Source of the DNA: a virus
DNA length: 64,000 nt
Direction: 5' to 3' (one strand)
IMG/VR virus record: IMGVR_UViG_3300002307_000050
Shown here: piece after piece, positions 232 to 63,483 of the stretch
Numbering within the stretch: position 1 is the stretch's first letter
How the letters are laid out: the number at the start of each line of letters is the position of its first letter
Program-made: the position numbers and the translations under genes
The notes under the pieces: model-generated
Told to the model about the DNA's origin: nothing
Databases searched by the model: none
What the model saw: only the letters and a program-made list of their open reading frames with translations

Positions 232-235
232 AGCT

Positions 236-8738: not shown

Positions 8739-8746
8739 TCGTTTAC

Positions 8747-9212: not shown

Positions 9213-9213
9213 C

Positions 9214-10089: not shown

Positions 10090-10095
10090 CAAGCA

Positions 10096-13953: not shown

Positions 13954-13959
13954 AAAGCA

Positions 13960-14418: not shown

Positions 14419-14440
14419 TTATGAAGAAAAACTATCTAAA

Positions 14441-15135: not shown

Positions 15136-15150
15136 TAAACTCTTTTTAGT

Positions 15151-15420: not shown

Positions 15421-15425
15421 AAAAA

Positions 15426-28718: not shown

Positions 28719-29124
28719 CTTGGCATACTTTCAGACCGAGGTGCTTGCGGTACATCTCCACGCAACGGCCACGGTCTTCGAACACGCAAACCACATCGTA
28801 TTTCTCTGCAATGTGCTCGTTATATACTGCGAGCTTTATGTTCGTATCGAGATCTTTGTTTCCTAGAGGTCTCATGTAGAGCGCCTCGTAATTGAATCCA
28901 TGATTCTCTAGCCACTCCTCAGTATCCTTTCTGCATGACTCATCTCTTCCAGTCACGAACACATGAATCGCAGTACTTCCCGCTCGAAGAGCTTGATACA
29001 GATGTCTCATCTTCGGATCAGGAATATCATCCTTGACAGTAGTGTAATCGTATGGCGTTCGATTTGTTCGATGCGCAATAGTGCCATCGATGTCCCAGAT
29101 GTAGCACTTAATTTTTGTGTCCAT
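28699..29124 (-). CDS. HAD-superfamily phosphatase (polynucleotide 3'-phosphatase or nucleotidase-like), 141 aa
   Basis: N-terminal DxDGT motif (IWDIDGTIA), a downstream VTGR motif and an acidic motif. Confidence 0.65.
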   Translation of the reverse strand: MDTKIKCYIWDIDGTIAHRTNRTPYDYTTVKDDIPDPKMRHLYQALRAGSTAIHVFVTGRDESCRKDTEEWLENHGFNYEALYMRPLGNKDLDTNIKLAVYNEHIAEKYDVVCVFEDRGRCVEMYRKHLGLKVCQVDEGKF

Positions 29125-43039: not shown

Positions 43040-43834
43040 TCATATTAAGTTTTGGTATAAAATATAATTTATAAGCAACGACTAATCACTTACACATAGA
43101 GTATATGCTTTTCATATACTATTGTCAACTAATTATGACTGTTAATAACTATATAACATATATATTATAATATGTAAAGCTTAGCTAATGCACACTATCC
43201 ACATATATATACACATGACCCACATGCGAAGATCAATGTCACCGACACTAGCCTTTGACTTGCGGTAACAGATCAAGCAACGTAGCGGATACATAACAAT
43301 CATAATTGACACATGATACTATTATGTTATTGCGGGGGCGGTCAATCGATGGTCACTGAAACAATATATGAAAGCATTTGAACATCATTTGACAATACAT
43401 TGCGTTGTGTTGTTGTGATTGCCAAGGGAAGCCCCCACCATGTTCTGGGGTTTTTTGTTTTTTTTGCGACTAACCCCCGGATTCTGATGCCGCCGATTTA
43501 CGATACTATTGACAAAAGGAAAAGATGTGATTATATATTATTATATATATAGGAGAAGGAGAGATTGAATTTGAGAGTTGACGTGAAGAAGCCTACTTCC
43601 CATTTTAATGTTTTTTACGAGAAAGTAAATCGAAATATTGTGCTGCGATACAGATCGGGTGCTTCTGTGAAGGGGTGATTCGCATCCGAGTTGTGCTTGT
43701 TGGGTATTTGGTTGTATACTTTCACTGCCACCTCTGCATGATTGTCCATGGTTACGGTGGCCCTGACGATTTCGTCTAATTGGTAGGACGCCCGCTGAAA
43801 CGGGAAATGGAGGTTCGACTCCTCACGTCGTCAT
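43040..43834. promoter_or_regulatory. AT-rich divergent control region between the leftward and rightward operons (candidate origin, early and late promoters)
   Basis: Strand switch of all genes here; no ORFs; (at)n and 'atatatatac' repeats; G/C-rich islands (gcgggggcggtcaatcgatggtcac). Confidence 0.45.
43428..43468 (+). terminator. orphan plus-strand intrinsic terminator (ccccca/tgggg stem followed by T6GT8) inside the control region
   Basis: gaagcccccaccatgttctggggttttttgttttttttg; no upstream plus-strand CDS. Confidence 0.4.
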
Positions 43835-43836
43835 AT
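43764..43836 (+). tRNA. tRNA-like element or pseudo-tRNA (GAA/Phe-like anticodon loop, non-canonical anticodon arm); its 3' end overlaps the ATG of the first rightward gene
   Basis: Acceptor pairs ugacgau/gucguca; D-arm cguc-uaauugguag-gacg; T-arm ggagg-UUCGACU-ccuca with the GGTTCGACTCC box. The anticodon arm is only cccg-cugaaa-cggg (4-bp stem, 6-nt loop) and there is an extra nucleotide before the acceptor. Confidence 0.3.
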
Positions 43837-44608
43837 GAAAGAGGGACTCAAAGATCACGCAAACAAATACCGTGCCGTGGAATCGACAGACAAGATGTCG
43901 GTGATTTCGTCTGCGGAGGTGGCGAAGTGGGACTCGGCGAAGCTGCTCAACTTCTACCAGTTCGTGATGCTCTTCTGGGAGGAGGGCAAGTTCAGGTGCA
44001 ACTCCGGCACGATGCACAACGTCTACTACGCCTACGAGACGTATCCCGAGTGGCCGTACAAGGAGTACCTGCATCGCATCAACGTCTGGTTCTCTCCGGA
44101 GGACGGGTACAAGTGGGCTTCGTTCAACTCGCGCTTCATCACGCTCACTCGCGTGGTCAACACGTACGTCAAGAAGCACCCGTCACTCGTGACTCCCGAG
44201 ATAACGGACCTGCTCAAGGACATTCCCGCCTACTCGTGGGTACTCGAGTCCTATAAGACCGTCACGACGAAGATCGGAGCGACGGTCGTCGAAAGGGACA
44301 CGATGTTTCACGACGAACGCAACAACCACATACCGGACAACGATCTCGTGGGATCTCCAGAGAAGAACCTAGTCGAGGCGATGCTGAAGGTCACGGACAT
44401 CTACAGGACCGTGGCTAACTCCATAAAGAAGGAGGACCTCGAGAAGATGACCGTCGCCCAGAAGCTCTCAACGCTGCAGCGACTGTCGTTCATCATCAAG
44501 GAGGTGAAGGGATTCAAGCCAAACCCCGCGGTGTTTCAGCAGATCAACATTTATAAGGACGGTCGAGAGGAGCTTGAGAAGGCGATCCTCGACTTTGGAG
44601 CGGAGTAA
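43835..44608 (+). CDS. hypothetical protein (257 aa); candidate small terminase subunit by position only
   Basis: First gene of the rightward block, immediately upstream of TerL, sharing its elevated GC. Confidence 0.35.
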   Translation: MKEGLKDHANKYRAVESTDKMSVISSAEVAKWDSAKLLNFYQFVMLFWEEGKFRCNSGTMHNVYYAYETYPEWPYKEYLHRINVWFSPEDGYKWASFNSRFITLTRVVNTYVKKHPSLVTPEITDLLKDIPAYSWVLESYKTVTTKIGATVVERDTMFHDERNNHIPDNDLVGSPEKNLVEAMLKVTDIYRTVANSIKKEDLEKMTVAQKLSTLQRLSFIIKEVKGFKPNPAVFQQINIYKDGREELEKAILDFGAE

Positions 44609-44779: not shown

Positions 44780-46384
44780 ATGAACATCAAGCGAATGCGC
44801 GAATACTACGAGAATCCCGACGGAGAGTACATGAAGAAGCTACGTCAGCGGGCTCAGAACGTGAAAACGATGTCGAACGACCCGCTCGCACGAGCGAGAA
44901 TGGTGCTCGACGTGTATTCGGTGGACTTCGAGAGGTTCTGCGAGGACTTCCTCTTCCTCATCATCCCTGAATACGGTGATGCCATCAAGCCCTTCTTCAT
45001 GTTCGAGTACCAGAAGAGGATCGTGCGGAAGATCGCGGATGCCGAGATGAGCGGAGAGGACATGGAGCTGCTCTGCGACAAGCCCCGAGGCATGGGACTG
45101 ACTTGGCTCATCGTCGCGTACTTCTACTGGCGATGGCTCTACACCCCGAACTGGTCAGCGTTCGTACTGTCGCGCACCGAGACCGAGGTCGACGACGGAT
45201 CCGCGATCCCGAACAACTCGATCTTCGGAAAGCTCCGATGGCTCATCGCCCACACCCCGAAGTGGATGCTTCCGGACGGGTTCGAGGCGAAGGGAAAGAA
45301 GGGAAACTCGACTGACTCCACGCTTCGACTCATCAACCCGGCCATGAACTCATCGATCGTGGGATCTTCAACGAACTCGAACGCGGGTCGCTCTCGCCGA
45401 TACTCGATCATCCTCATCGACGAGTGCTTCTCGATCGAGCACTTCAACGACGTGTACCGAGCGCTTCAGTCCGTTTCACGTGTAAAGCTGTTCATCTCGA
45501 CCACCAAGGCGGGCGCCGTCTATCGCGGGTTCAAGGACCTCTGCGAGAAGGCCGGAAACTATATCTCGCTCGTCTGGAAGGACCATCCGTGGAAGGATCA
45601 GGAGTGGTACGAGGAGCAGCTCGTGAAGGCCGAGTTCGATCCCGAGGTCATGAAGGAAATCGACGTGTCATACGCAGTGAACCCGAAGATGCAGTACTAT
45701 CCGCAGGTGTCCATGGCGAAGATCGAGTCCATCGAGTACGATCCGCAGAAGCCGATCTATACGGGCCTCGACTTCGGATCCGGAGACGTCACCGTAATCG
45801 TATACGCGCAGTTCACCGGCAACTCGCTCAACATAATCGACGTCTACCACAACAGCGGAAAGGGAGACTGCAAATGGTACGCCCCGTTCCTCAACCCGGA
45901 GATCAAGGACTCGGACTTCCTATACAGCTACAACCCAGTTCAGCTCGACTTCATCGCGAAGGTCCGCAGATGGCGCAAGGCGACTGCCAACTTTGGCGAA
46001 GTCGCGCATACGATCAAGTCGATGGCCGACAATCGATCGATCTCCGACGTGCTCGGAAAGCTCGGCATCAGAATCATGGTCAACACGTACGCGATCGAGT
46101 ACGAGCCTCGAAGACTAGCCACTTCCCAGATGCTTCCGAAGACCGTCTTCAACAAGGACTCTGCCGGTGCGATGGAGCTGTACGATGCGATCACTAACTC
46201 TCGAAAGATGTCAGTCGACAACGGAAACCCGAAGCACGACGGAGAGGTCGGAGACTACCGCTCGGCGTTCGAGAACCTCTGCGCGAACATCGGTAGAATC
46301 TTCAAGAACCAGAGAGGCGACATCGGAGGAGGACTCAACGACGGCGGATTCGTCAGTGCGCTTATTAGGAATCTCAAAGTGTGA
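44780..46384 (+). CDS. terminase large subunit (534 aa)
   Basis: Walker-A-like KPRGMGLT, Walker B YSIILIDECF, and RNaseH-like nuclease motifs (TGLDFGSGDVTVIVYAQ). Confidence 0.7.
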   Translation: MNIKRMREYYENPDGEYMKKLRQRAQNVKTMSNDPLARARMVLDVYSVDFERFCEDFLFLIIPEYGDAIKPFFMFEYQKRIVRKIADAEMSGEDMELLCDKPRGMGLTWLIVAYFYWRWLYTPNWSAFVLSRTETEVDDGSAIPNNSIFGKLRWLIAHTPKWMLPDGFEAKGKKGNSTDSTLRLINPAMNSSIVGSSTNSNAGRSRRYSIILIDECFSIEHFNDVYRALQSVSRVKLFISTTKAGAVYRGFKDLCEKAGNYISLVWKDHPWKDQEWYEEQLVKAEFDPEVMKEIDVSYAVNPKMQYYPQVSMAKIESIEYDPQKPIYTGLDFGSGDVTVIVYAQFTGNSLNIIDVYHNSGKGDCKWYAPFLNPEIKDSDFLYSYNPVQLDFIAKVRRWRKATANFGEVAHTIKSMADNRSISDVLGKLGIRIMVNTYAIEYEPRRLATSQMLPKTVFNKDSAGAMELYDAITNSRKMSVDNGNPKHDGEVGDYRSAFENLCANIGRIFKNQRGDIGGGLNDGGFVSALIRNLKV

Positions 46385-46423: not shown

Positions 46424-48001
46424 ATGGAAAAAAATAAAACGTATTTCGGTTCTGATGCACGCAACAAGCTCAAGGTCGGTGTCGACACAATTTTCAACTC
46501 AACAGCGCCGACTCTCAGCGCGAACGGACGAAACGTCTGCTACATGAAATGGGGGATGATCCCGTACATCTCGAACGACGGAGTATCGATCGCCCGAAAG
46601 GTGAACCCAGAGAACTTCGTAGAGCGAATGGGAGCCGACCTCATCAAGCAAGTCTCAGAGCAGACCAACGCGGATGCAGGAGACGGAACAACGACATCAA
46701 TCATCCTCGCGCACTCTATGATCGAGGAAGGAATGAAGCTCATCGATGCAGAGGGATCGAAGGTCAACCCAATGCAGCTCCGTCGCGAGATGGAAGCAGC
46801 ATCAATCAAAGTCATCGATGCACTCAAGGATCGAGCAACGAAAGTGACGAGCCTCGAAGACCTCATCAAGATCGCGACTATCTCAGTCGAGGATCCAGCG
46901 ATCGGAAAGCTCATCGCAACTGCTATCGAGGAAGCGGGCGCCAACGGATCCGTCTACGTTGAGGAATCAACGAAGCCGGGAATCACAGTCGAGAAGATCG
47001 AAGGATACGACTTCCCACAGGGAGCGATCTCTCCGGGAATGATCACGAACTTCGACAAGCTCGAGACAGTGATGGAAAACCCAGTTATCCTCGTGACCGA
47101 GAGACCACTCTTCTGGAACACTGCGCTTCAGCAATTCTTCGACACGGTTCTCCAGATGGGAAAGCGAAACATCCTCATCATCGCCGACGAAGTTCACGAA
47201 GACGTGATTCGATTCGCAGCGACTAACACCCAGAACAAGAAGTTCACATGTGTCATCGTGAAGAAGCCGATGCAAGCCGAGTTCATCGAAGACATCGCGA
47301 AGATCACGGGCGCGACTGCAATCACGAAGGAAAAGAACTTCATCAACCCAAAGCCTGAGTATCTCGGTACTGCTCGAAAGGTTGTAGTGAAGCGCGACAA
47401 GTCTACGACAATCATCGGTGGCGCGATCTCTCCAGAGGCGCTCGCAGAATATGTCGAGGCACTCAAGACTCAGGTGAAAGATGCTGAGCCTGAAGATCCT
47501 GCAGTTGGAAAGATGACAGAACGCATCGCAAAGATCACAGGAGGAATCCAGATGCTCAATGTCGGATCTGCAATCGAATCAGAACTCAAGTATCTCAAGA
47601 TGAAAGTCGAAGATGCGATCAATGCGACAAAGGCAGCAAAGGAAGAAGGATTCGTAGCGGGAGGAGGTTCTGCACTCATGCACATCGCGTATGAAGTTTT
47701 CGGAGGAGTAGAGAAGAATGACGGTGAAAAGGTTGTCGTCGCCGCATGTTCAGCGCCATATTCTCAGATTCTCTACAACAGTGGGGAAAAAGGCGACACG
47801 ATGTTTGATGTCAGCCAGAAAAACTCAGGATACGATGCCCTCAAGCATGAATTCGTGAGCGATGTCATCGAACGCGGCATCATCGACCCAGTTAAAGTGA
47901 CTCGATCAGCGTTCAAAAACGCATCGAAGCTCGCAGGTCTCTTCCTCACGACAGAGTGCGTTGTGGAAGATCTCCCAGAAAAAGGTGCATTTGACAGATA
48001 A
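46424..48001 (+). CDS. groL: GroEL/Cpn60 chaperonin (525 aa)
   Basis: GDGTTTSIILAHSMIEEG ATP-binding motif, equatorial, apical and intermediate domain patterns (AVKAPGFGDRRK-like region), and GGGSAL..A motif. Confidence 0.85.
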   Translation: MEKNKTYFGSDARNKLKVGVDTIFNSTAPTLSANGRNVCYMKWGMIPYISNDGVSIARKVNPENFVERMGADLIKQVSEQTNADAGDGTTTSIILAHSMIEEGMKLIDAEGSKVNPMQLRREMEAASIKVIDALKDRATKVTSLEDLIKIATISVEDPAIGKLIATAIEEAGANGSVYVEESTKPGITVEKIEGYDFPQGAISPGMITNFDKLETVMENPVILVTERPLFWNTALQQFFDTVLQMGKRNILIIADEVHEDVIRFAATNTQNKKFTCVIVKKPMQAEFIEDIAKITGATAITKEKNFINPKPEYLGTARKVVVKRDKSTTIIGGAISPEALAEYVEALKTQVKDAEPEDPAVGKMTERIAKITGGIQMLNVGSAIESELKYLKMKVEDAINATKAAKEEGFVAGGGSALMHIAYEVFGGVEKNDGEKVVVAACSAPYSQILYNSGEKGDTMFDVSQKNSGYDALKHEFVSDVIERGIIDPVKVTRSAFKNASKLAGLFLTTECVVEDLPEKGAFDR

Positions 48002-48019: not shown

Positions 48020-48289
48020 ATGAATATCGACATAAAGAATTGGTGTGTGAAGATTTGCAAGAAGTACGACCTTCGTTGCTTCTATCTTCCCAAGACCAAT
48101 TCTTTTGTCTTACATAAGGAGGGTCGCGCAGTTCAGCACTTCAACGAAACTCAGTTCTACCAGAAACCGAAGATGGTTCGTGAGAAGGAGATGACGCCGC
48201 TCGTTAAACTTGGCCTCGTTCACAACTTAGATGAGCGAGTGAAGAACCAATTATTTCTCAATCGAAAGCTTGGGAAGCTAATTTATTAA
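48020..48289 (+). CDS. hypothetical protein (89 aa) between GroEL and the portal
   Basis: ORF. Confidence 0.35.
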   Translation: MNIDIKNWCVKICKKYDLRCFYLPKTNSFVLHKEGRAVQHFNETQFYQKPKMVREKEMTPLVKLGLVHNLDERVKNQLFLNRKLGKLIY

Positions 48290-48293
48290 AGCT

Positions 48294-50285
48294 ATGGCGA
48301 CAACAGCAGAGAACAAAGACAAAGTGAAATTGGAAAACGTCCGTCAGCCTCGACACGAGGAACTGGAGGTTGTTGGTGCGATCTTCGATCGTTACTATCG
48401 ATGGCGATCTCAGCGTGACGGTACGATAGACCAATTCCAAGGGCGCTCACTCGAGCAGTTCCTCACTACGTCTCGCGAGCTCTTCTGGAACTCGACAGTA
48501 ACTCCAAGCAACGACCTCTCTGCGCTTGATCTCAGCCTATCGATCGGATTCATCCGAAAGGAGGTGTGGGACTTCGCTTCTCGACTCGTCTCTCAGGACT
48601 TTCGCGGAAGAATGGATGGAGAAAACCTTGATACCTACGGTGTTAAGGTTCTTCAGGCCATGTACGACAAGTGGCGCTTCAAGTCCAACGACAAGGTTGA
48701 GAAATTCTGGCAGATCCTCTACGGAGCGGTGAACGGAACCGTCGTGGAGTTCGTCGGATACAACGACTCAAAGGTTACCCACCGATATCTTCGCGAGTAC
48801 GACAAGGCGAAGGGAGGATACCGAATCGAAGAGAAGGATGACTACTACTGGAACGACGTGTGGACTGAAATCGCGCCCGTCGAGGACATATACTTCTCGA
48901 AGCTCTGGGAACGCGATGCTCAGAGACAGGGACGTTTGCTGTGGCGCACGCAAGTCGACTGGAAGGACTTCCAACGCGACTTCCATATGTACGAGAACGC
49001 AGAGTACGTATATCCGGGAAACCAGATCAGCGACGACTCGCTCTACTTCCGACTCCTTCGCGGGTCAGGCGTTACTTCGACAGACAAAGTTGAGATCCTC
49101 AAAGAGTACGACGTCGTTCAAGACCGATTCACAATCGTCGCGAACGGAGTATGGCTCAACCCACTCAAGGGAAAGCTTGGAATTGCCCCAATGCCTTTCA
49201 ACCACAAGCTCATGCCTTTCGGCGTGACTCAGTGGAAGGGAATCGACGAGAAGTTCGTGTACGGAATGTCGATGCCATTTGAATTGAAGGACTATCAGAA
49301 GATCCTCAATACCTCGATGACGATGCTCGTCGAGCAGGAGCTCCGCGACATCGACCCGCCGATCATCTCGAGCGACTTCGAGTCTCCTCAGCTCATCTTC
49401 GGTCAGCACAAGGTCATTCCGGTCAACGACGTGAACGCGTACAAGGTCATGGAGACCAAGCCCGCTTCGAACTCGTTCTTCAACATGGTCAACTCGCTCC
49501 AGTCACTCATGTCCGCTCAGGCGAACGGGGGAACTCAGCAGATCGCCCCTTCACGTCAGCCAAAGTCTGCTCGCGAGGCGATGCAGATGGCTCAGCTCAA
49601 GCAGGAGTCTCTCGGAAACGCATTGCTCATGTACTACAACATGCTCCGTCAGGAAATGACTCTCATGCTGAAGACCGCAGTCCAGTTCTACCCAACCAAC
49701 AAGTACGCGAAGATCAACAACCGCATCGTTCGCGCGATCAAGATCCCAGACACGTCTCTCACCACTGGTGGAGTCGGAAACCTCAACGTTCGATTCGTGC
49801 ATAAGAAGCAGGACGACCTCATCACGTACTTCGAGTCAGTCGAGAAGTCTCTCCAAGATGGACGTCAGACCGAGATCATCGAATGTCCCATCGAAGTGCT
49901 TCAGGACCTCGACTTCATAATCCATGAGATCGAGCTCAAGCCCGCGAAGGCTTCTGAGATCGAGAAGGCAGCTTGGATGGAGCAGATGTTCACTCCGATG
50001 ATGCAGTACTTCGTTCCGATGGGAATCGCGGACCCTGCGAAGGTCTACCTTCAGCTCCTCGAGAAATACGGAGAGCACCCTGCGGACTACACCTCAGACA
50101 AGGTTCTACCTCAGCTCATGGCGACATGGGGAAACGAGATGAACTTCCAGATGCCAGACCCAAAGAAGCCAGACTCAATGAAGCAAGGCGCTCTCGGACC
50201 TCAGACTGGAAACCTTAATCAATCTAATACCGGCACTCGATTCGGAGGTCAGGGAGGAGCTCCCATCCCCGCACCCGCTGCCTAA
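48294..50285 (+). CDS. putative portal protein (duplicate of 236..2227)
   Basis: Exact duplicate at offset +48058. Confidence 0.5.
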   Translation: MATTAENKDKVKLENVRQPRHEELEVVGAIFDRYYRWRSQRDGTIDQFQGRSLEQFLTTSRELFWNSTVTPSNDLSALDLSLSIGFIRKEVWDFASRLVSQDFRGRMDGENLDTYGVKVLQAMYDKWRFKSNDKVEKFWQILYGAVNGTVVEFVGYNDSKVTHRYLREYDKAKGGYRIEEKDDYYWNDVWTEIAPVEDIYFSKLWERDAQRQGRLLWRTQVDWKDFQRDFHMYENAEYVYPGNQISDDSLYFRLLRGSGVTSTDKVEILKEYDVVQDRFTIVANGVWLNPLKGKLGIAPMPFNHKLMPFGVTQWKGIDEKFVYGMSMPFELKDYQKILNTSMTMLVEQELRDIDPPIISSDFESPQLIFGQHKVIPVNDVNAYKVMETKPASNSFFNMVNSLQSLMSAQANGGTQQIAPSRQPKSAREAMQMAQLKQESLGNALLMYYNMLRQEMTLMLKTAVQFYPTNKYAKINNRIVRAIKIPDTSLTTGGVGNLNVRFVHKKQDDLITYFESVEKSLQDGRQTEIIECPIEVLQDLDFIIHEIELKPAKASEIEKAAWMEQMFTPMMQYFVPMGIADPAKVYLQLLEKYGEHPADYTSDKVLPQLMATWGNEMNFQMPDPKKPDSMKQGALGPQTGNLNQSNTGTRFGGQGGAPIPAPAA

Positions 50286-50293
50286 ATAAAATC

Positions 50294-50539
50294 ATGATCT
50301 CACGAAAGATAAAGAAAGTCGTTCTCAGCATGGACATCTTGAAAGAGATGCTCACTCAGGGCATGGCAGTGAACTACACTGTCACTCAGGGTATCCCTGA
50401 AGATGCCGTGATCATCAGCATGGAGAAGAATCGCGACGAGAAGACATACACGCTCATCGTCCATAGCGACACCTTCAAAGAGGCTCATGACAGCACGGTG
50501 CTCGACACCATGGACATCATCGTTACAAAGATAAACTAA
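50294..50539 (+). CDS. hypothetical protein (duplicate of 2236..2481)
   Basis: Exact duplicate. Confidence 0.35.
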   Translation: MISRKIKKVVLSMDILKEMLTQGMAVNYTVTQGIPEDAVIISMEKNRDEKTYTLIVHSDTFKEAHDSTVLDTMDIIVTKIN

Positions 50540-50544
50540 ATACC

Positions 50545-51075
50545 ATGAAGTTAAATCCCAAAATACTCAAGAGAATACTAGAGTCGAACAGAGAGTTCTT
50601 CGAGAAGGAGCTTCTGACGAACGAAGAGCTCGAGAAGCAGTTCGACAAGAAGAGAAGTTTCTTCAACAACCTATTCATCCGAGACATCATCGGGTACATT
50701 CCCGCATCGCTCAACGAGCCAGTGCTCAGGATATTCGAAGAGCATGGAGAGCTGCTCGAGCGTTGGCTCCTCTGGCAGTCATGGTACATCAACCGAAAGA
50801 TCCTGAAGGATCCGGAGAGGATCCAGTTCTTCGACGGAGTTCTCCTGTATCTCAAGACACTTCACACGATGGCATCGACGAAGAAGCGCATCAAGACGAC
50901 AGAGGCAATATACTCAGCGCCAAAGCCGGACAAGCCGTGGGTCGATGAAGCATTATCAGACATAGAATTTTTCACTAAAAATGCAAAAGATCAAATCAAT
51001 AAGCGCGCCCAAGAGAGTGGCGCCGAAAATGCCGAAAACGATCTCTCAGAAGTCGCCAAAGTTATCGAAGGCTAA
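50545..51075 (+). CDS. hypothetical head-module protein (duplicate of 2487..3017)
   Basis: Exact duplicate. Confidence 0.4.
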   Translation: MKLNPKILKRILESNREFFEKELLTNEELEKQFDKKRSFFNNLFIRDIIGYIPASLNEPVLRIFEEHGELLERWLLWQSWYINRKILKDPERIQFFDGVLLYLKTLHTMASTKKRIKTTEAIYSAPKPDKPWVDEALSDIEFFTKNAKDQINKRAQESGAENAENDLSEVAKVIEG

Positions 51076-51134
51076 GGCATCGAAATCAGTCGGAGTGTCG
51101 TTTGGAAAGAGCAAGAAAAGCATGTAATCCACAG

Positions 51135-51163
51135 GAGCGCCCTTTACGGGGCGTTTTTGTTTT
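51135..51163 (+). terminator. rho-independent terminator (duplicate of 3077..3105)
   Basis: Exact duplicate. Confidence 0.6.
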
Positions 51164-51200
51164 GTGGTACAATTAGGGAAGCAATAAATCTGATACACGA

Positions 51201-51743
51201 ATGAAGAATTTTTATGAAATTTTAGGTGTCGCAAAGACGGCCTCCAAAGAGGAAATCAAAAAGGCTTTTCACGTGCTCGCTCACAAGCATCACCCAGACA
51301 AGCCCGGAGGAAACGAGGCAGAGTTCAAGAAGTGCAACGAGGCGTACCAGACTCTCAGCGACGACTCGAAGCGATCGCAGTACGACATGACCATCGGTCA
51401 CGGAAACGGATTTCCATTCACGTCTCACGGCTACTCTCCTCCAAGGAGACAGACTCACACCTACACGACATACACCAACAACTCAGGATTCTACTATCGA
51501 GCATCGCAGCAACAGGAGAGTAATGAGGATTTCGCCGATCGAATGCAGAAGATGTCAGACATGCTCAAGCAGCAGATGGAAAACATGAGGTATAGTCAGG
51601 CTCAGCAACAGAAGACAGCTAATGACTACGCGGACGAAATTCGGAAGAGCACGGAGAGAACCGAGAAGATGTACAGGGCGAAACGTGCATTCAGTATGGG
51701 AGATTTTATTATTTTTGACGATCTAGATATAAACGACTTATGA
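51201..51743 (+). CDS. J-domain co-chaperone (duplicate of 3143..3685)
   Basis: Exact duplicate; HPD motif. Confidence 0.8.
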
Positions 51744-52132
51744 AAATAGACATAAAGACAATTCCGCACAAAGACCAGAGATACCCGACAGTGGGCGACT
51801 GGTGGTTCGACGACGAGACCAAGACACTCAACATACGAGTTTCCGACATGGGAGACGTCGAGATGGAGTACCTCGTGATTGACCACGAGCTTCGCGAGGC
51901 GATGATCTGCAACCATCGCGGAATCAGCGAGAAGGCGATCAGCAATTTCGACATCCTCTTCGAGAAGATCCGCGCAGAGAATCCTGAGATCATCGGAGAC
52001 ATGGAGCCGGGAGACATGATCGGTGCTCCGTATCACATGGCGCATAAATTCGCGACAGACGTGGAGAAGGTAACCGCAGCTCAGCTTGAGGTCGACTGGG
52101 ACAAATATTCAGAGAAGGTAAACTCTCTATGA
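51740..52132 (+). CDS. hypothetical protein (duplicate of 3682..4074)
   Basis: Exact duplicate. Confidence 0.4.
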
Positions 52133-52413
52133 TCGGAATCGCCGAGCTCATCAAGAACAGGCCAGTAGAATCTGCCGAGGTCATTTCAGCTAGAAAGGAG
52201 ATCCTCGACAAGTTCATAAAGGTCATCAACGACGGCCGTAGGATGGCGGGTTACAAGCCGTACCCTGCGAGCTTCGTCGTCATCAAGATGTACAAGGCGG
52301 GATACAAGTCAGTTAGTCAGCTCTGGATGTTCTGGGGTTCGTGCAGTGATGCGCAGAATTTCAGTTCATACTGGCACTGGAAACTAAAGAAGGAAAACTA
52401 TGAAAAACAATAA
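52129..52413 (+). CDS. hypothetical protein (duplicate of 4071..4355)
   Basis: Exact duplicate. Confidence 0.4.
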   Translation: MIGIAELIKNRPVESAEVISARKEILDKFIKVINDGRRMAGYKPYPASFVVIKMYKAGYKSVSQLWMFWGSCSDAQNFSSYWHWKLKKENYEKQ

Positions 52414-52602
52414 AGATCATTTATACATCGAGCTCACGGAGGTGAAGTCGTACATGAAGGGCATTTCGCCAAAAACTTCTACGTACCAAAATCTCGAAAA
52501 GCGAAAAAACGAGATCGAAAAATTACTCGAGCAGGACACAAGTCCGGTTCTCAGCATCAAGTCAAAGGTTTCGGCGTAAAAATTACCCTATATGCAAGGA
52601 AA

Positions 52603-52634
52603 AAGCACTGAGTATCTCTATTCAGTGCTTTTTT
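52603..52634 (+). terminator. rho-independent terminator (duplicate of 4545..4576)
   Basis: Exact duplicate. Confidence 0.65.
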
Positions 52635-53181
52635 AGTATTCGTATTTGATTCGTATCGTATTTTGCCTCTTTATTTCTGGAGTTGTTACGACCCCCCTAC
52701 CCCCCAAAGACTAAAAAATCTTTTGAAAGCAAGAAGTCGTCACAACAGGCTCTTTATCCCCGTCGGTGCAATTTATAGGATGCACACCCATGACGTTCGC
52801 AGACACGCTTAAAGTCCTCTGCTCTAACCCCGGACTATAAAAACGAAAAAACCCTTTCACAAGGGCTTATATGTTCTGACTTTTAAGGTCAGCAAGAGGG
52901 ACTAGCCCTCCATATAAGCGCCCCATGAAAAGGTTCTTTAAAATCTTTCCGCGTGAGGTGCTCCTTGTGGCAGGTGACGAATCAACTGCACACAAAGTAT
53001 AGCACCATCTCTCTACCAGTGTCAGTAGAGTTATCCACAATAGGTAACGCCGTTTGCTATTATTTTGTGACAGTCGTATAATGTTTTCGTATAGGACTGC
53101 CGCCGAGTCAAGAAATTAGGGCGTGTGCGTTTAATATAACCTCGGGCGTGAATGATGGGCCGCCGCCATCGGAAAAAATGT

Positions 53182-53811
53182 ATGGATCCAAAAAAGCTTG
53201 TAGATGATTTTGTGGAAGGAAAGATTACCGAAGACCAGTTCATCGCGGAAAAAGAAAAACTCTCCGCCGAAGATCTTGCGAAGTTGGATGAGGCTGCTAA
53301 GTCAGCAATCCCAACTGCTACTCAGAAATTGATTGACGTAAGACGCGGTACAAAAAAGATCGAGGAAGCAGCACCGGCTGCACCAGATTTTGGAAAGAAG
53401 TTCCGTGAAGAAAATTTAGCTAAAGCCAAGCAACGTATTGCTACTGAAATCGCGTTTGAAAAGGAAGAGGATCGCATCGCATTCCTTCAGGAGTTCGAGC
53501 AGAGAGATCCGGGAAGCGTAGACGTGGAAAATATCGTTCGCGATATGAAGTCTCACTATGCAGCCAAGCATCCAGAGGAATTCTTCGACCTCAAGAAGAG
53601 ATCAGATGAACTCAAGGCAAATGCAGACGAATTCACTAGCATGGGAGCAGGGCCAAACGGCACAGGTCAGGGTGGTGGTGACGGTGGTGGAAAAAAGAAG
53701 TACTCTCCAGAGGCGATCGCGTTGTATAACGCAGGAAAGGCTCGCGGAAGCACTCTCACTATCGATCAATACCAAGCTCAAGTTGAGGCAGAGCGCAACA
53801 AGAGCAAGTAA
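53182..53811 (+). CDS. putative scaffolding protein (duplicate of 5124..5753)
   Basis: Exact duplicate. Confidence 0.35.
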   Translation: MDPKKLVDDFVEGKITEDQFIAEKEKLSAEDLAKLDEAAKSAIPTATQKLIDVRRGTKKIEEAAPAAPDFGKKFREENLAKAKQRIATEIAFEKEEDRIAFLQEFEQRDPGSVDVENIVRDMKSHYAAKHPEEFFDLKKRSDELKANADEFTSMGAGPNGTGQGGGDGGGKKKYSPEAIALYNAGKARGSTLTIDQYQAQVEAERNKSK

Positions 53812-53917
53812 AATTTTTCTCTCTAGAAAATTATCTATAAGCGATTCGGGAAATCCATGCGGGTTACTGGTCGCTTATTTTTAATTTTATTAGCCTAATT
53901 TTTAGAAGAAAAACATT

Positions 53918-54670
53918 ATGTTTATTCCAAGAAAAGAATTACTCGACCAATTTTTGGTCAAAGCAGTTGTAGGAAACGGTCTCACTATCGCAATCGGCGA
54001 TGCGATCATCCTCAACCGCGTTGGAACAGGAGTATTCACTGTAACAATCGCCTCACCTGCTGTGTTCTCACAGACAGCTCACGGCCTCGTTGCGGGAGAT
54101 GCAGTCCAGTTCCAGACAAGTGGCGCTTTGCCTACAGGTCTCGTAGCAGGTACAACCTATTACGTCATCGCGGCAGGTCTCACATCGAACGCGTTCGAAG
54201 TCTCAGCTACTCTCGGTGGCTCAGCGGTGAACACATCAGGCTCACAGTCTGGTACTCACTCTATGTACACGATTACCCCAACAGTCAAAGGTGCTGCGAA
54301 CACAACTGCCGAAATTCTCGGTACTGTACGCTCCATCCTTGGTCCAAACGCAAAGCCGCTCGAAGTTACTTCGTACACGACTGCATTGGATAACACTGTA
54401 AACGCACAGGTCATGGTTGAGTTCTTGCCTTCTCAGATGGATACGACTTACCTCGCAGACCTCTCAGCAGCAGCGAACACTACTCCGAACTCTAACCTCA
54501 TGGGTTGGTTCAACCTCTCGACTACCCTCAACGGTACGCTTGACGAGTCTTCATATGTCGCGACAAACTCTACGACATACAGCTCAACGAAGCAGTTCTT
54601 CTCTTACGGAGTGAACCCTTCGAACTCAAGTCAGGTCATTGGTATCTGGGCATCACGCGCACGCATTTAA
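53918..54670 (+). CDS. virion protein with the shared 80-aa domain (duplicate of 5860..6612)
   Basis: Exact duplicate. Confidence 0.45.
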   Translation: MFIPRKELLDQFLVKAVVGNGLTIAIGDAIILNRVGTGVFTVTIASPAVFSQTAHGLVAGDAVQFQTSGALPTGLVAGTTYYVIAAGLTSNAFEVSATLGGSAVNTSGSQSGTHSMYTITPTVKGAANTTAEILGTVRSILGPNAKPLEVTSYTTALDNTVNAQVMVEFLPSQMDTTYLADLSAAANTTPNSNLMGWFNLSTTLNGTLDESSYVATNSTTYSSTKQFFSYGVNPSNSSQVIGIWASRARI

Positions 54671-54714
54671 TCCCGTCGACTTTTATTTTATTAGCCTAAT
54701 TTTACTAACAAATT

Positions 54715-55827
54715 ATGGAACCATTTTATCAAGGCCCATTAGACGTATTCCTCGTAGGACTTCGCGCTGAATTCAACGCAGTCGAAGATCAGGGAAAACG
54801 TTCACTTCAGGCTCTCATCGATTACTCGATGATCGGAACTGAATCAAAGGCAAACGCCTTGTACCTCAACGTCTCAGGATCAACTCCGGAAGGAATGATC
54901 GCTGTATGGCGCCACACTGGAACTACAGGGGTCAACGGACCAGTAGGAAAGCGTGCAGCAGGTGATCGCTACCCTAACGCTCAGTACCTCCGCACATGGG
55001 AGACTACTGTGTACGATCCAGACTCTCAGGATGCCGACCAGATCGTCGTCCCAGAGGAACGCCTCGCAAAGGAAGCGACTGTCTACAAGACTTACCTCAA
55101 CCGCGGTCAGAAGCTCTACGAAAAGTTCGTTCGTCAGAACGTACTCGACACATTCGAGCTCTTGAACCTCGCTTGGACTCTTCCAACCTCATACCCTTCA
55201 GCGAAGTTCTTCGCGAAAGGATCTCAAGGTCTCGATGGAAACTACACTGCTCTCAACGAGCGTTTGATTTCCACTCAGCACGCCCTTGCGAACGGAGGCA
55301 CTACTCGAAGCAACGCTGTCCAGACATCTGGAAACGCAGCGCCATTCTCAACGACAACTTACTTTGCTGCTAAAGAGCAGGGAGGAGCCACTGTTGACGA
55401 TGTTGCAGAGCCAATGCCAATGTTCGGAGGAATGCTCGACATCTACGTTCCTAACTACAACGGTATGGTGAAGGCAGTGAAGGACATCAACGAATCTATG
55501 TGGGAGCCGGGCGGAGCGAACAACGACATCAACGTGTTGAAGTCTGGATTCGAACGCATCGTCACTTCTCCATACATCGGTACTTCATACTACATCCCTA
55601 CGATCTCTAACCTCCGCTCATGGATCTTGGCTGATCGCAGCTCTGTAGACCCACAGATCGGTACTGGTTTCGTGCGCGTAGAGTTCTGGCCTATGAGTTC
55701 AAAGGTTGAACGTGTAGATCCAAACGATGCTATCGCTTACAAGGTTAAGCAAGAGTACTCATACGGATACGTCGACTGGAGAAACTTCCTCGGTTCGAAG
55801 GGAGACGGTGCTGCCTACTCAGGCTAA
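54715..55827 (+). CDS. putative major capsid protein (duplicate of 6657..7769)
   Basis: Exact duplicate. Confidence 0.45.
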   Translation: MEPFYQGPLDVFLVGLRAEFNAVEDQGKRSLQALIDYSMIGTESKANALYLNVSGSTPEGMIAVWRHTGTTGVNGPVGKRAAGDRYPNAQYLRTWETTVYDPDSQDADQIVVPEERLAKEATVYKTYLNRGQKLYEKFVRQNVLDTFELLNLAWTLPTSYPSAKFFAKGSQGLDGNYTALNERLISTQHALANGGTTRSNAVQTSGNAAPFSTTTYFAAKEQGGATVDDVAEPMPMFGGMLDIYVPNYNGMVKAVKDINESMWEPGGANNDINVLKSGFERIVTSPYIGTSYYIPTISNLRSWILADRSSVDPQIGTGFVRVEFWPMSSKVERVDPNDAIAYKVKQEYSYGYVDWRNFLGSKGDGAAYSG

Positions 55828-55856
55828 ATTATCAACGATAATATTGAAGATAATTT

Positions 55857-56507
55857 ATGAACACACCACTACCAAAGAACTACCAGTCTCCGGGCTCCGA
55901 CTTCTCTGCGAAGTCTGAGATCAACTCAAATGTATTCATTTGGGAAAAGAACGGACGTGGGTACGCGATGCAGTGCAAGACTACTACTGGCTCGGGAGTG
56001 ATCCCTCCAACTGACACGAACCTCTTCGGACAGGGTTGTGAAATCATGATCGTTGATAGCGGCATGAAATTCACAAACTCTGCCCAAGACGGTCTCGCGC
56101 CGGTCTGGTCAGGAATTGCGATCACCAAGAAGGTGTCTCTCACTTCAGCACAGATCCTCGCGCTCAATACCACAGCAGTGGAGCTCGTAGCAGCTCCATC
56201 AGCGGGGTATGTCCTCGATATCGTCTCAGTCGTCGGTCGCATGAACTTCCTCACGGCAGCGTATGCAACAAACACAGAGCTCGACATCATCGACACGACA
56301 TTGGGTACTGTCTTGTTCAAAGACACTGCCACATTGCTCGCGGCGGCAGCGACGAAAGTCGTGAAGGTAGAGCCGAACATCGCATCGAACGTTGGCCTCG
56401 CGGTCACTTCGGCGGGATCGGTATCTGCCAAGGTTGCGACGGGTAACCCTGCCACTGGCGCGGGAACCCTCGACATCTACATTACTTACTCGATAATTCC
56501 ACTCTAA
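55857..56507 (+). CDS. virion structural protein (duplicate of 7799..8449)
   Basis: Exact duplicate. Confidence 0.4.
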   Translation: MNTPLPKNYQSPGSDFSAKSEINSNVFIWEKNGRGYAMQCKTTTGSGVIPPTDTNLFGQGCEIMIVDSGMKFTNSAQDGLAPVWSGIAITKKVSLTSAQILALNTTAVELVAAPSAGYVLDIVSVVGRMNFLTAAYATNTELDIIDTTLGTVLFKDTATLLAAAATKVVKVEPNIASNVGLAVTSAGSVSAKVATGNPATGAGTLDIYITYSIIPL

Positions 56508-56511
56508 TCCC

Positions 56512-56796
56512 ATGAATATCATCACAACGCAAAGTGAACCGATCGAATTCCTTCTCCGCAGAGGACGAAAGATTTTGATCACTCCTACAGTTCCGGTAAC
56601 CGTCGACGAAGCAGAATATGTAATCCTCGACTCACGTCTTGGGTCACAGATCAAGCTTGTTGCCGACGAATCGAAACCTGCGGAAGCCGTTCAGGCTCCA
56701 GTCGTCACAGAAGAAGTCACAGCCCCAGTAGTAACTGCCCCAGTGGTAGAAGCTCCGAAAGTTGAGGCTCCTGCGCAGACGAACGTAGAGGGTTAG
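56512..56796 (+). CDS. small structural protein (duplicate of 8454..8738)
   Basis: Exact duplicate. Confidence 0.35.
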   Translation: MNIITTQSEPIEFLLRRGRKILITPTVPVTVDEAEYVILDSRLGSQIKLVADESKPAEAVQAPVVTEEVTAPVVTAPVVEAPKVEAPAQTNVEG

Positions 56797-56868
56797 TCGT
56801 TTACTCCCGAGCTTTAGGGCTCGGGGAATAAGTGCCTAATCCATTATCAACTTAACCAGTAAAAAATT

Positions 56869-57270
56869 ATGTCTAGAGATAAATCAGGTGTCACAAAAGT
56901 TCTCGATGGTGCAAGTGCGCTAGGTATTGGTGCCGCAGTAGACGTCTCCGACTGGAGGCACGTAGAGATGCAGATATCCTCTTCAGGAAGCGCTGCATTC
57001 ACGCTCAAATTTCAGATCTCGCAGTCTGCTGACAAGCCAGACTTCAACTCGGCAGCATCAGCGACCAATCGATGGACCTATGTCCAAGCGAAAAACCTCG
57101 ACACTGCAGCGACGATCGACGGTAGCACCGGCGTTGTGTTCGCAGCGGATGCAGTGGTCAACGTAGAGATCAACACAAACCTTATAAAGTGGATCTGCCC
57201 TAAGATTACTGCGTACACGCAAGGAAAGGTCTTCTGCGACCTCTCAGCTTGCAACGACAGTCTCCAATAA
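56869..57270 (+). CDS. virion protein (duplicate of 8811..9212)
   Basis: Exact duplicate. Confidence 0.4.
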   Translation: MSRDKSGVTKVLDGASALGIGAAVDVSDWRHVEMQISSSGSAAFTLKFQISQSADKPDFNSAASATNRWTYVQAKNLDTAATIDGSTGVVFAADAVVNVEINTNLIKWICPKITAYTQGKVFCDLSACNDSLQ

Positions 57271-57271
57271 C

Positions 57272-58147
57272 ATGACTGAGCTAGAAAAGACAAACAAAGA
57301 GCTCAAGGAATCGCAAGACAAACTCACCTCAATCATGGGTGCGATCAATCGTGAGACCGTAGAGCTTCAGAACATATCTGAAAAAAAGTTGGAAGCTGAA
57401 AAGGCCTACAACGATTTTGTCTCTACCTCAGAATCAGAAAAGACTCGAATCAACGGAGACATCTCTAGCATTACCACCGAATACGAGACAAAGAAATCGG
57501 CATTCGAAAAGGACATAGTTTCGATAGAGTCAGATCGAGATACTCGGGTAGAATCAGCGAAGACTGAGATCGATCAGATCAACACATCAGTGGGAACCGC
57601 TCAGACGAACGCTGATGCAAAGATCGCGCTCATCGAGTCGAGCACGAAGGAAATCGAGGCTTCTCATAAGAAGGACATCGAGATACTCGTCGCGGAAAAG
57701 GAATCGCTCACGCTCGCCAATGACACGTTCAAGACTGAAAACACGAAACTCAAAAATGAAAACAGTGAACTCACTGAGGAAAATAAAAAGCTGCAAACGA
57801 ACATATCCGACAGCGTTGCGGAGCTCTCTCGACTAGAGACAAAGATTCAGCCTCTCAAGGATGAAATCGGCGGACTCGAAACGGAGGAATCCACGCTTAG
57901 GGGGAACAGAGATGCAGTTGCGACTGACCTTCGCGAGAAAGAGAAGAAGGTCGAAGAGATTATCCAACTCACAACAGAATCTAATTCCAAGCTTGCAGAA
58001 ATCATCGCTAAGATCGACAAGAACTCACCTGAGTACGAAAAGTATGTAAACGACAAAGCATCTCTTTTCAATCAGACCGAGGCACTCAAAAAGAAAGAGA
58101 TCTTCATCAGAAACCGATACAAGCAAATTGGAATTGCTTTCGAATAA
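57272..58147 (+). CDS. coiled-coil structural protein (duplicate of 9214..10089)
   Basis: Exact duplicate. Confidence 0.45.
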   Translation: MTELEKTNKELKESQDKLTSIMGAINRETVELQNISEKKLEAEKAYNDFVSTSESEKTRINGDISSITTEYETKKSAFEKDIVSIESDRDTRVESAKTEIDQINTSVGTAQTNADAKIALIESSTKEIEASHKKDIEILVAEKESLTLANDTFKTENTKLKNENSELTEENKKLQTNISDSVAELSRLETKIQPLKDEIGGLETEESTLRGNRDAVATDLREKEKKVEEIIQLTTESNSKLAEIIAKIDKNSPEYEKYVNDKASLFNQTEALKKKEIFIRNRYKQIGIAFE

Positions 58148-58153
58148 CAAGCA

Positions 58154-61100
58154 ATGGCACGAACAGATGGAATATGGGAAGTTTCCGAGACAGGCGATTA
58201 CATCAAGATGCCCGGAGACGGATACGATGTCCTCATAAACGGACTCGATAGATATCTTAACTTCAACGACATGGCGGGATTTCCCGGCTATGGATTTCGC
58301 GATAACGGCGGAGTCATGGAGTTCAAGAATGACTTGGGCGTGTGGGCTCCGATCGGAACGGGCACTGGAAGCGGAACTGTCACGTCAGTGACCGCAGACG
58401 GAAGCCTCGTCGTGACCGTAGACAACACTGACCCTGCAAACCCCGTCGTACAATTCGGAGGTGTATTCACCGATGGCGTGACAATCACTGGCGATGGTCA
58501 CGTGTTCAATCCGCTCACTGCCCACTCTGGAGAGGGAACATCTTTTCTCACTTACAACCAGATCGCGTTTGGAGATCCTGCGAACATCATGACGAGCACT
58601 GTAGACTTTCAGTACAACATTGCAGCCCAACTCTTCGAAGTCGGATTCGGCGGTACTGGATACCTTCTCGTTAATCCTCTCGCGAGCTTCTATGCGATGG
58701 GTAACCCACTCGGAACTCGAATGGAATTGAACGACTCAGGAGCGACATCATTCAGCTCTTTCTCTAATTTTTTCTATGCGAACGGACTTGCAGGAGAGAG
58801 GTACATGCTCCTCGGAGGGGGGTTCTACCAGATTGGAGATCTCTCTGGATCTAATAATAAGTCACAGTTTACCATAAACGATGCGGCACAGACATTCACG
58901 ATGTCTGGAATCAGTAGTAGCAGATACTTTGTAGTGGACCCGAATAGTCAGATGTTCCAGTTTGGAGACATCGACAATGGCGGGAACGGGGACTTTTTCG
59001 AAATAGGCAAGAACAGATTCACCTTCTTCGGCAAGCCAGGAGGCATTAGAAGCCTCAACTTCGACCAGAACGCGAACACATACGAGATCGGGGACATAGA
59101 CTCAAGCAATGTGAATTCCACTCTCCTGATCGACGATGCAGGTAAGACGATCTATGCGAGGGCTCAGCAGTTTATAACACAGCAACCAACTGGCGAGCAG
59201 TTCATCATAGCCACGCTGAGTAGTATTCAGATGGGAGACTTGAGTTTCGTTGGCAACAATACGACACTCGGGATATTCGACTCGTCTGAGTTAATGCAGT
59301 TCTCCGTGATGGGGAACAGGTACTTAGACATGAACGTTGCAACGCAGACGTATGCGATAGGTGACCTTGATGGCGTGGCTGGCAACAACTATTTCACTAT
59401 CACGGATGGAAGTGGAGACATCCTAGCTCACCCAACATACGGCTTTACCATCACTGACGGAACAAACACCCCGTTTGTCGCATACACATTTGCTAACCAA
59501 GTGTACCTCTCAGGAAACGCATACCCGAACAACTTCGGAACTACCGGAGACATACTTTATACGGACGGAGCGGGCACTAACTTCTGGTCTGCGCCACCTG
59601 CCGCTTCTGTCGTTGCGATCGGACTTCCCATAACAGGAACCTCACCGAATCAGGTTCTGTTCATGGACAGCTCGAACAACCTCGCGCAGACCGCGCAGTT
59701 CTACTACAACCCAGACATAGCAGTTGACCATTTCACTATTGGATTTCCAACTTATGGAGACATTAAGTTTAATATTGATGCGGGAATAGGTTCGTATCAG
59801 CTTGGCTCTCTTCCGGGCAACATTGGTGGATTCGGAACATACCTCGACATCGTTGACGGAAGTCAACATATCGATCACTACTCGAACACTTTCACTGCGA
59901 ACCAAATCGGAACAGGACTCACCTACATCTACGCGGACTATCAGCCGGGCGGAACTATCGACATGAGACTTGGAGATTCAGGGTTCGCCGTGAACGGGAC
60001 GCAGTTCCTCATTCAGGATGCAATACAGACAATCCAAGCAAACGCCGCGTTCTTCAAGGTCGCAGATGCTAGTTCTAGTGTCCGCTTCTCGATTGATACA
60101 AGTACAGGTGCTCCTACCATCGGGGGATTTGGAGCGTATACTCTCCCTTCGTCTGGCGGAAGCCTTGGAGATGTTCTAACCGCAGGATTTGCAGGATCTA
60201 CCTCATGGAGTCCAGTTCCAACTTCGTCAATCGGAATTGGAACGACAATCACCGCATCTACCCCGTGGGAACTATTGTTTGTTGATGGATCAAACCAACT
60301 TGCGCAGGACTCAGGCTTAATTTTCCAACCTGTATCTGGAGGATCGCATCCATTCACATTCCACATCTCATTGAATAGCACCAACGTGTTCGATATCAAC
60401 AACACTTCTGGTCAGGCAAAAATCGGTAACTACGGAGGCGGTGGAGTAGGACCTGCGTATGCGACATTCGACTGGGGAACCACCGGAAACACTCAGTTTA
60501 GAAATTTCGGAACATTCTCTGTTGCTGATAGCTTGGGTAACCAGTCATTCCGAGTAACTCCAACTACCAACACTGTTAGAATCAGTAATGCGTTCGATCT
60601 TCCAACTGGCGCGACCCCACTCAACGGAGTCATGACACTTACGAGCTCAGGTGTTGCAGGATGGCAGTTGATACCTACGGCAAGTCTCGCATCTCATGCA
60701 GTGACATACGCTAAAATTCAGCAGGTTAATGCGAACAGAATCCTTGGAAACCCAACGGGATCACTCGCCGACGTGTCCGAGATATCACTCGGCGCGAGCC
60801 TTGGATTCTCAGCAGGATCCCTCAACGCGCTCCTCGGATCTACTCGGGTAGGTTTTGGAAACGCATCTGGATTCATGACGGACTCATCGAGCTTTATTTA
60901 CGACGACGTGACTGCGCACAAGTTCAACGTATCGCTTGCAGCGCACCAGTACCTCACTCTCGACCAACCAAACGGACGAATGCAGATCGGAGACATCACA
61001 GCAGCATCAAACAAGGTGTGGCTCGACTTGCGACCTGTGTTCAACAACACAATCCTCTACTCTGGAAACCAGTTCCAAGTTCAGTCTGGGACGAACCAGA

Positions 61101-62011: not shown

Positions 62012-62017
62012 AAAGCA

Positions 62018-63193: not shown

Positions 63194-63208
63194 TAAACTC
63201 TTTTTAGT

Positions 63209-63478: not shown

Positions 63479-63483
63479 AAAAA

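Follow-up and report, generated by a model that had tools for sequence, protein, structure and literature searches.

In animal mitochondria, excision of tRNAs by RNase P and RNase Z releases leaderless mRNAs. Those are functional tRNAs found genome-wide, unlike the single non-decoding element preceding one operon that is described here. In Haloferax, a tRNA-like structure upstream of the 5S rRNA is cut by tRNase Z. Like the arrangement proposed below, this system is prokaryotic, and the RNA downstream of the structure obtains its 5' end from the cut at the 3' side, but it is archaeal and that RNA is an rRNA and not a translated message. In the mascRNA/MALAT1 and MEN-beta elements, a tRNA-like fold within a long transcript also recruits RNase P and RNase Z, although in these eukaryotic nuclear lncRNAs the fold sets the 3' end of the upstream RNA and not the 5' end of a coding RNA. 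Finally, the closest analogues described so far, plant mitochondrial t-elements, define both 5' and 3' mRNA ends through RNase Z and RNase P, and one of them lies at a start codon, with the 5' end of rps4 located at +2 (Forner et al., 2007; PMC1920247). In our full-text literature searches, we came across no bacteriophage described as carrying an element of this kind, nor any bacterial start codon to which one is fused.

The DNA analyzed here (the window, 64,000 nucleotides) corresponds to a 48,058-bp phage genome, circular or circularly permuted, that is read 1.33 times (1-15942 equals 48059-64000); features before 15942 are therefore present twice. A long plus-strand block extends from 43835 through the wrap point to about 27283, and the minus-strand early genes occupy 27664 to about 43043. 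The plus-strand block opens with a 257-amino-acid ORF, followed by the large terminase (TerL; 44780-46384), a GroEL-like chaperonin (46424-48001), and a series of large ORFs presumed to be structural genes. The element described below lies at the right-hand end of a divergent intergenic region of ~790 bp, directly 5' of the first plus-strand gene. Among cultured phages, neither the element region nor the 257-amino-acid protein has close DNA or protein relatives, and TerL has only distant matches (about 25% identity). Shine-Dalgarno motifs were found upstream of just 2 of 42 ORFs, and upstream regions are A/T-rich. Such SD-poor, A/T-rich upstream regions are typical of Bacteroidota phages.

At the 5' edge of the late block we found a tRNA-like element consisting of a cloverleaf and a 1-nt spacer, U43834 (43764-43834, +), which is detected by ARAGORN and Rfam, is the minimum free energy (MFE) fold, and has homologues in three related contigs (L001, L002, and L058). 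ARAGORN called 43764-43834 (+) as 'tRNA-??? anticodon (ga)', with a 2-base "anticodon". The Rfam tRNA model (RF00005) matched 43765-43833 with 33.9 bits, above its gathering score of 29 (E = 0.0027, whole 64-kb window), and in RNAfold the minimum-energy structure of the element alone is the cloverleaf (-24.1 kcal/mol, z = -1.8). These results bear out the tRNA-like cloverleaf with a T-box, a GG-containing D arm, and a 7-bp acceptor that had been described in the initial annotation, which had also named a covariance model as a check.

The acceptor helix is formed by UGACGAU (43764-43770, +) and GUCGUCA (43827-43833, +), the latter ending 1 nt 5' of the ATG. One of its seven pairs is U.G, and five of the seven show double-sided changes relative to L001, L002, and L058. 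The D arm, CGUCU-AAUUGGUA-GGACG with GG in its loop (43773-43790, +), is followed by a truncated equivalent of the anticodon arm (43791-43804, +) recognized by ARAGORN, Rfam, and the fold, with a 4-bp stem (CCCG/CGGG) and a 6-nt loop (CUGAAA), 14 nt in all instead of the 17 nt standard in tRNA. The T arm, GAGG-UUCGACU-CCUC (43810-43824, +), is followed by an unpaired AC at 43825-43826, one base above the canonical count. In canonical numbering this yields mismatches at 49:65 and 7:66; in the equivalent view, there is one extra base and a perfect 7-bp acceptor helix. Both the non-canonical anticodon arm and the extra base before the 3' acceptor strand had been noted before and are read directly from the sequence. 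The T-loop motif GGTTCGANTCC occurs twice in the window, in the element and in a phage tRNA-Gln, compared to 0.15 occurrences expected by chance.

In terms of known RNA classes, the window element has the 7-bp acceptor, the D arm with G18G19, and the T arm of the GTTCRANYC type found in RF00005 members, and lacks the 5-bp anticodon stem, the 7-nt loop with U33, and an anticodon conserved among orthologues. As these are the defining anticodon features of a tRNA, annotation as a tRNA gene or as a simple pseudogene is unsuitable. ARAGORN in tmRNA mode made no call in any of the four elements, nor was there an Rfam tmRNA match. The viral tRNA-like structures of plant RNA viruses are 3'-terminal and have a CCA end open to aminoacylation; the element instead precedes an ORF of a DNA phage, and its discriminator is followed by UAUG and not by CCA.

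Relatives were collected through the 257-amino-acid protein, which has only three other clusters among 5.8 billion, and through TerL, which has many relatives; the genomic context of ten relatives was fetched. A homologous element is present at the same place in three of them, L001 (4932-5027), L002 (733-824), and L058 (2518-2609). TerL of L001 and L058 is 81-82% identical to that of the window, and L002 is a 1.7-kb contig without TerL whose first-gene protein is 68% identical to its window counterpart. These elements are 92-96 nt long and escape both standard ARAGORN and Rfam, RF00005 giving no hit even at E<=1-5. The L001 and L002 elements fold on their own into an acceptor, a D arm, an "anticodon" stem, and a T arm, and the fold of the window, L001, and L002 elements persists in longer sequence context. 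In L058, the acceptor has one C.A mismatch and one G.U pair, and the MFE fold lacks the acceptor helix.

A covariance model built from the window element alone (R1) could not align the acceptor stems of the homologues, and for that reason we used a hand-made helix-only alignment; MAFFT on the full elements misaligned the 5' halves. In this alignment, where helices were picked from each sequence's own fold, a choice that favors pairing, 97.5% of the cells of the four elements are paired by standard pairs, and double-sided changes are present in 10 of 20 pairs (acceptor 5/7, D stem 2/4, anticodon stem 3/5). None of 500 shuffles reached the observed pairing and covariation values, and slid controls were 36-57% paired. 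The D stem, for example, covaries between GUCU/RGAC and GCUU/AAGC. The T arm GAGGTTCGA(C/G)TCCTC, in turn, is invariant across the four sequences bar one loop base. Also kept are U8/A14/A21, G18G19 (L002 has a single G in its D loop, unlike the GG of the window), and the U at -1, which is invariant.

The distal anticodon domain behaves differently. Where the window has its 6-nt loop, L001 carries an insert of 27 nt, and L002 and L058 have a hairpin of 22 nt that differs from it; these central inserts (22-27 nt) are unrelated to the window loop, and the anticodon stem is kept. ARAGORN with relaxed settings assigned inconsistent anticodons (Lys, Gly, Gln), reporting three different "anticodons with introns". 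L001 and L058 provide a further contrast: their TerL and first-gene proteins are 96% identical, whereas their elements diverge in acceptor and D stem as well as throughout the central domain, and both still fold; their leaders, too, are partly different. It follows that the element was exchanged or remodelled with its fold retained. The L058 element resembles that of L002, even though the first-gene proteins of these two are just 79% identical, and such sequence comparisons point to mosaic exchange within the leader of the L001, L002, and L058 phages. Judging from the pattern of substitutions, selection on the element acts on structure and not on sequence. The known carriers amount to four sequences of three structural types in one sub-lineage with shared ancestry. 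We conclude that a small clade of uncultured phages has, joined to its first late gene, a genuine RNA structure that derives from a tRNA and is maintained by selection.

The element is joined to the first late-block ORF (43835-44608, +; 257 amino acids) by a single base, U43834, which separates the end of the acceptor helix (43833) from ATG 43835. The 3' end had been placed over this ATG in the initial annotation; instead, the helix abuts it with the 1-nt spacer, and only a hypothetical CCA tail would overlap. The helix ends exactly 1 nt before the ATG in all four element-bearing sequences, the N-terminus of the protein is conserved from this ATG, and in the window an in-frame stop is located upstream (43796-43798) with no upstream in-frame start. 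Given this junction, the conserved N-terminus, and the missing upstream start, there is no room for a promoter or for ribosome loading between element and gene, and the element would have to be co-transcribed with the gene, a conclusion forced by the geometry. The constant 1-nt junction could nevertheless reflect inheritance instead of selection, since the four carriers share ancestry. The 20 nt preceding ATG 43835 have an A content of 0.15, the lowest among the 42 ORFs, and the accessibility of this start by a crude measure (0.56) is about the median and not an outlier. The 257-amino-acid protein has no Pfam, PHROG, or PDB match; by position only, it may be the small terminase.

Upstream of the element lies a structured leader. 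A hairpin, GCCACC...GGUGGC (43727-43761, +), directly precedes the element, and relatives have GGGGGA...UCCCC at the same spot. Further upstream, the box GTATACTTT (43714-43722, +) is conserved in all four element-bearing sequences, and a conserved TTGACA followed by an AT-rich stretch (43509-43514, +) is a candidate promoter, from which a leader of ~320 nt would be transcribed. A long-range pairing of the GTATACTTT box with the start region, predicted in the window, is absent from the relatives and was discarded. Just upstream of TTGACA 43509, a terminator-like hairpin, CCCCACCATGTTCTGGGG, followed by a T run (43433-43460, +) may insulate the late leader from upstream transcription. In addition, the large divergent intergenic region of the window and of L001-L003 contains a conserved DnaA-box-like motif, (C/T)TATCCACA followed by TATATA (window 43195-43212; L001 ~4320-4340, in opposite orientation; L002 ~112-130; L003 ~702-720), which may correspond to a replication origin or a regulatory site; the number of DnaA-like boxes in the window, one, is not above chance.

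The conserved part of the element is thus its upper half, that is, the acceptor/T-arm stack, the elbow formed by the D and T loops, and the U at -1, and the decoding end has been lost. The acceptor/T-arm stack, the elbow, and the U at -1 are what RNase P, RNase Z, and the CCA-adding enzyme read. From this conserved half and the fixed junction we infer, as a plausible reading just short of an even chance, that the element is a t-element within the late-operon leader, and that cleavage by host RNase P and a 3'-acting tRNA endonuclease releases an essentially leaderless late mRNA. According to this model, the leader and the late genes would be transcribed as one RNA, and the element would fold at the 3' end of the long structured leader. 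Host RNase P would cut on its 5' side, and a 3' tRNA endonuclease of the RNase Z type would cut after the discriminator. The resulting late mRNA would start at AUG 43835 or one base earlier (UAUG, in the canonical register), carrying a 5' phosphate, essentially leaderless, and detached from the structured leader, and its translation would be leaderless as well. As for the host machinery, the phage tRNA-Gln has no encoded CCA, and therefore the host must trim the 3' ends of CCA-less precursors and add CCA. How this arrangement arose is a more tentative matter: possibly, the phage lineage domesticated a tRNA copy into a non-decoding t-element that is excised by host RNase P and RNase Z to give a leaderless late mRNA.

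The comparison with plant mitochondrial t-elements extends to several features. Both are tRNA-derived, non-canonical cloverleafs with a conserved T arm of the GGTTCRANYCC type and a degenerate anticodon region. Plant t-elements are embedded in mRNA precursors and one adjoins a start codon; on the phage side, a location within an mRNA precursor would follow from the 1-nt junction. The plant elements belong to an organelle, and their ends coincide with mRNA ends made by RNase Z and RNase P; the phage element lies in a bacteriophage late operon, and in three of its four versions 22-27 nt are inserted into the anticodon domain. Of the explanations offered initially, a tRNA-like 5' leader that serves in processing, a step that would still be putative, best fits the comparative data.

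A different use of the same excision is conceivable. The element could be a stand-alone small RNA acting in trans, excised like a tRNA, with the excised RNA and not the mRNA end as the functional product and its contact to the ATG reflecting genome compaction, a reading that we consider unlikely. Such an RNA could possibly sequester, as a decoy or sponge, a host factor that binds tRNA, a nuclease of a defence system, or an enzyme of modification. Many tRNA-binding proteins recognize the L-shape elbow and the acceptor, both of which are conserved here, phage genes are tightly packed, and the presence of a phage tRNA-Gln together with a phosphatase of the polynucleotide kinase-phosphatase (PNKP) type hints at a tRNA-related conflict. 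However, tRNA-directed nucleases usually target the anticodon domain, which is the unconserved part here, and each of the four sequences has the element at the same position, where a conserved structured leader ends. A trans-acting role is compatible with the processing model, as an excised element would leave an identical mRNA end behind.

Alternatively, the element could remain on the mRNA as a cis-acting 5' structure, with an RNase P cut upstream or no cut at all, which we regard as rather improbable. Its job in that case, put forward with the same reserve, would be to protect the 5' end from decay, or to occlude or present the AUG, possibly through a tRNA-binding protein. The location of the element, bordering the ORF on its 5' side and preceded by a conserved hairpin, agrees with a cis-acting role, as does the presence of another conserved structured leader at the same place in relatives that lack the element, which implies that the region is regulatory across the family. 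Against this, with a 7-bp helix only 1 nt away from the AUG, a 30S subunit would find no single-stranded RNA on which to land, and the pairing of the upstream box with the start region predicted in the window is not conserved. At the level of sequence, the processing, trans-acting, and cis-acting (stabilizing or regulatory) readings are inseparable.

The origin of the element bears on two of the remaining explanations. The phage encodes a genuine tRNA-Gln(UUG) without an encoded CCA (27578-27649, -), a likely source or relative of the D arm of the element. The D arm of the element, UUUCGUCUAAU(U)GG(U/C)AGGAC, is near-identical to that of this tRNA, and model R1 scores the tRNA-Gln with 24.2 bits (E about 3e-4), which makes a duplicated phage tRNA a likelier ancestor than a host tRNA-Phe. 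The two share the overall fold and a canonical T loop; unlike the tRNA-Gln, the element has no 7-nt anticodon loop or conserved anticodon, is mismatched at 7:66 and 49:65, and is fused to a start codon. The kinship with tRNA-Phe that had been suggested earlier is not supported, the nearest tRNA being the phage's own tRNA-Gln; since the loop varies among the homologues, its GAA is uninformative. A 141-amino-acid stand-alone phosphatase domain of the PNKP type (PF25109, 3e-38), encoded at 28699-29124 (-) some 1 kb from the gene for tRNA-Gln, hints at RNA or tRNA repair.

With such an ancestor, the element might be a non-functional, decaying pseudogene of a duplicated Gln-like phage tRNA, consistent with the near-identical D arm, the damaged anticodon arm, and the lack of the element in more distant relatives. 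We find this improbable: pairing in the acceptor, D, and anticodon stems has survived 10 double-sided changes, and the T arm has not varied although the flanking proteins are only 68-82% identical, whereas neutral decay would have abolished pairing. Covariation of the stems across relatives thus argues against the pseudo-tRNA of the initial annotation, which had linked it, as it had an att-site remnant, to a host tRNA-Phe gene.

An attP site, or an att-site remnant from integration into a host tRNA gene, is very improbable. The 3' part of a tRNA gene is common in phage att sites; here, in contrast, the 5' half is there in full, with covariation between the two halves, and the element sits between the early and late operons beside the terminase genes, not in a recombination module. 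No integrase or recombinase family was detected among the ~30 ORFs scanned (small ORFs in part). The 24-nt T arm plus 3' acceptor, GAGGTTCGACTCCTCNCGTCGTCA, from the 3' half that the initial annotation had proposed to compare with bacterial tRNA genes, had no exact match in 185,579 species-representative genomes; as only exact matching was used, a diverged or unsampled host tRNA match is compatible with this result. No bacterial tRNA gene was found that equals 43790-43833 over its 3' 25-45 nt, nor were prophage forms of this phage with that sequence at their flanks.

Least credible of all is a real decoding tRNA, be it an indel-spoiled tRNA-Phe or tRNA-Gln or an unusual tRNA with a 6-nt anticodon loop: the Rfam tRNA threshold is passed and the loop contains GAA and CUG, but the arm is 3 nt short and not 1, positions 7:66 and 49:65 are mismatched, the sequencing indel once suspected is contradicted by an identical element in an independent Logan assembly (SRR6220867; L004, a 48,080-bp contig), and the homologues, with large unrelated inserts and no common anticodon, have an anticodon domain even less tRNA-like than that of the window.

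Outside this sub-lineage, the element is absent from all seven examined relatives with TerL at most 69% identical to the window (L003, L005, L059, L060, and L062-L064), and is therefore dispensable for the phage family. In IMG/VR, we found no relative of the 257-amino-acid protein, neither the exact element nor a less strict version of the junction had a match, and the IMG/VR TerL relative (L005) lacks the element. The TerL search of JGI metagenomes yielded two distant loci, both without the element, and GTDB genomes gave no match. A generic pattern in IMG/VR, a tRNA T arm followed by ATG at +2, occurred at 43 distinct sites, compared to 28, 15, and 29 sites for the control triplets GTA, AGT, and GAT. 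An open frame of at least 60 codons followed in 7 of 43 ATG cases and 10 of 72 controls, with no enrichment. The ATG excess is at most weak (<=1.8-fold over the control triplets), and so no general phage rule is claimed.

If our reading of the element is true, no mRNA maturation of the tRNA-punctuation type would have been described before for a bacterial virus, and nature would provide an example of a leaderless mRNA made by enzymes in a bacterium whose translation dispenses with Shine-Dalgarno sequences. Should the cleavages occur, the organelle logic of punctuation would also be at work in bacterial viruses, providing a compact way to free a late mRNA from a long regulatory leader with a translation start that needs no RBS, and the element could serve as it stands as a natural part for processing RNA scarlessly in bacteria. 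Whether or not this mechanism is correct, the element clearly exemplifies a tRNA fold that selection has kept after the loss of its anticodon.

The element also matters for annotation. Finders of tRNA genes list the copy in the window as a pseudogene or an odd tRNA and overlook its longer homologues, and gene callers extend the first late ORF from a GTG through the T arm. This GTG lies inside the T arm in L001 (5001-5027), L002 (798-824), and L058 (2583-2609), and is preceded by GGAGGA or AGAGGA from the 3' strand of the anticodon stem. As a result, the Logan calls P0002 and P0003 begin with M(DV)RF(D/E)SSPDG, a spurious stretch N-terminal to the residue encoded by the conserved ATG. The window has TGG at the equivalent position, plus the in-frame stop upstream.

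Several observations concern loci other than the element. In unrelated IMG/VR viral contigs, we noted minihelix elements that end 2-3 nt before an ATG and consist of just a T arm on an acceptor of 5-6 bp, the D and anticodon arms being absent (L035 ~4820-4895; L023 ~6430-6500; L014 ~5800-5870; L040 ~5650-5717), the one in L035 being followed by an 888-amino-acid ORF. As the search pattern itself required the ATG, no enrichment is claimed for them.

In L003, L059, and L060, the element is replaced by a different conserved structured leader (L003 ~1495-1650; L059 ~2585-2730; L060 ~2450-2615) with the box AAAAATCCTTTCAC. It contains covarying long-range pairs, CACAGGCATA...TATGCCTGTG in L059 and CACTGGAA...TTCCAGTG in L003, which interleave with TCCTTTCA...TGAAAGGA in a pseudoknot-like order, and the motif CGTCAAGC(A/G)TGG about 25 nt before the ATG. 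This leader may represent an unnamed leader RNA family. In L060 (2614-2751) and L062 (2505-2678), both without the element, a small basic ORF of 45-57 amino acids (e.g., MSTNKRKSMRQVRFLFSKGSPL...) precedes the first late gene.

Finally, the GroEL-like chaperonin of the window (46424-48001) is full-length (Pfam Cpn60_TCP1, 2e-40; PHROG 5725, 3e-109), and its gene lies directly 3' of the large terminase in all relatives fetched, an unusual placement for a 48-kb phage. The terminase itself varies within the family: a 934-amino-acid TerL homologue (P0098) harbors intein/Hint domains (PF14528 and PF14890), and hence an intein-containing terminase exists in this phage family.
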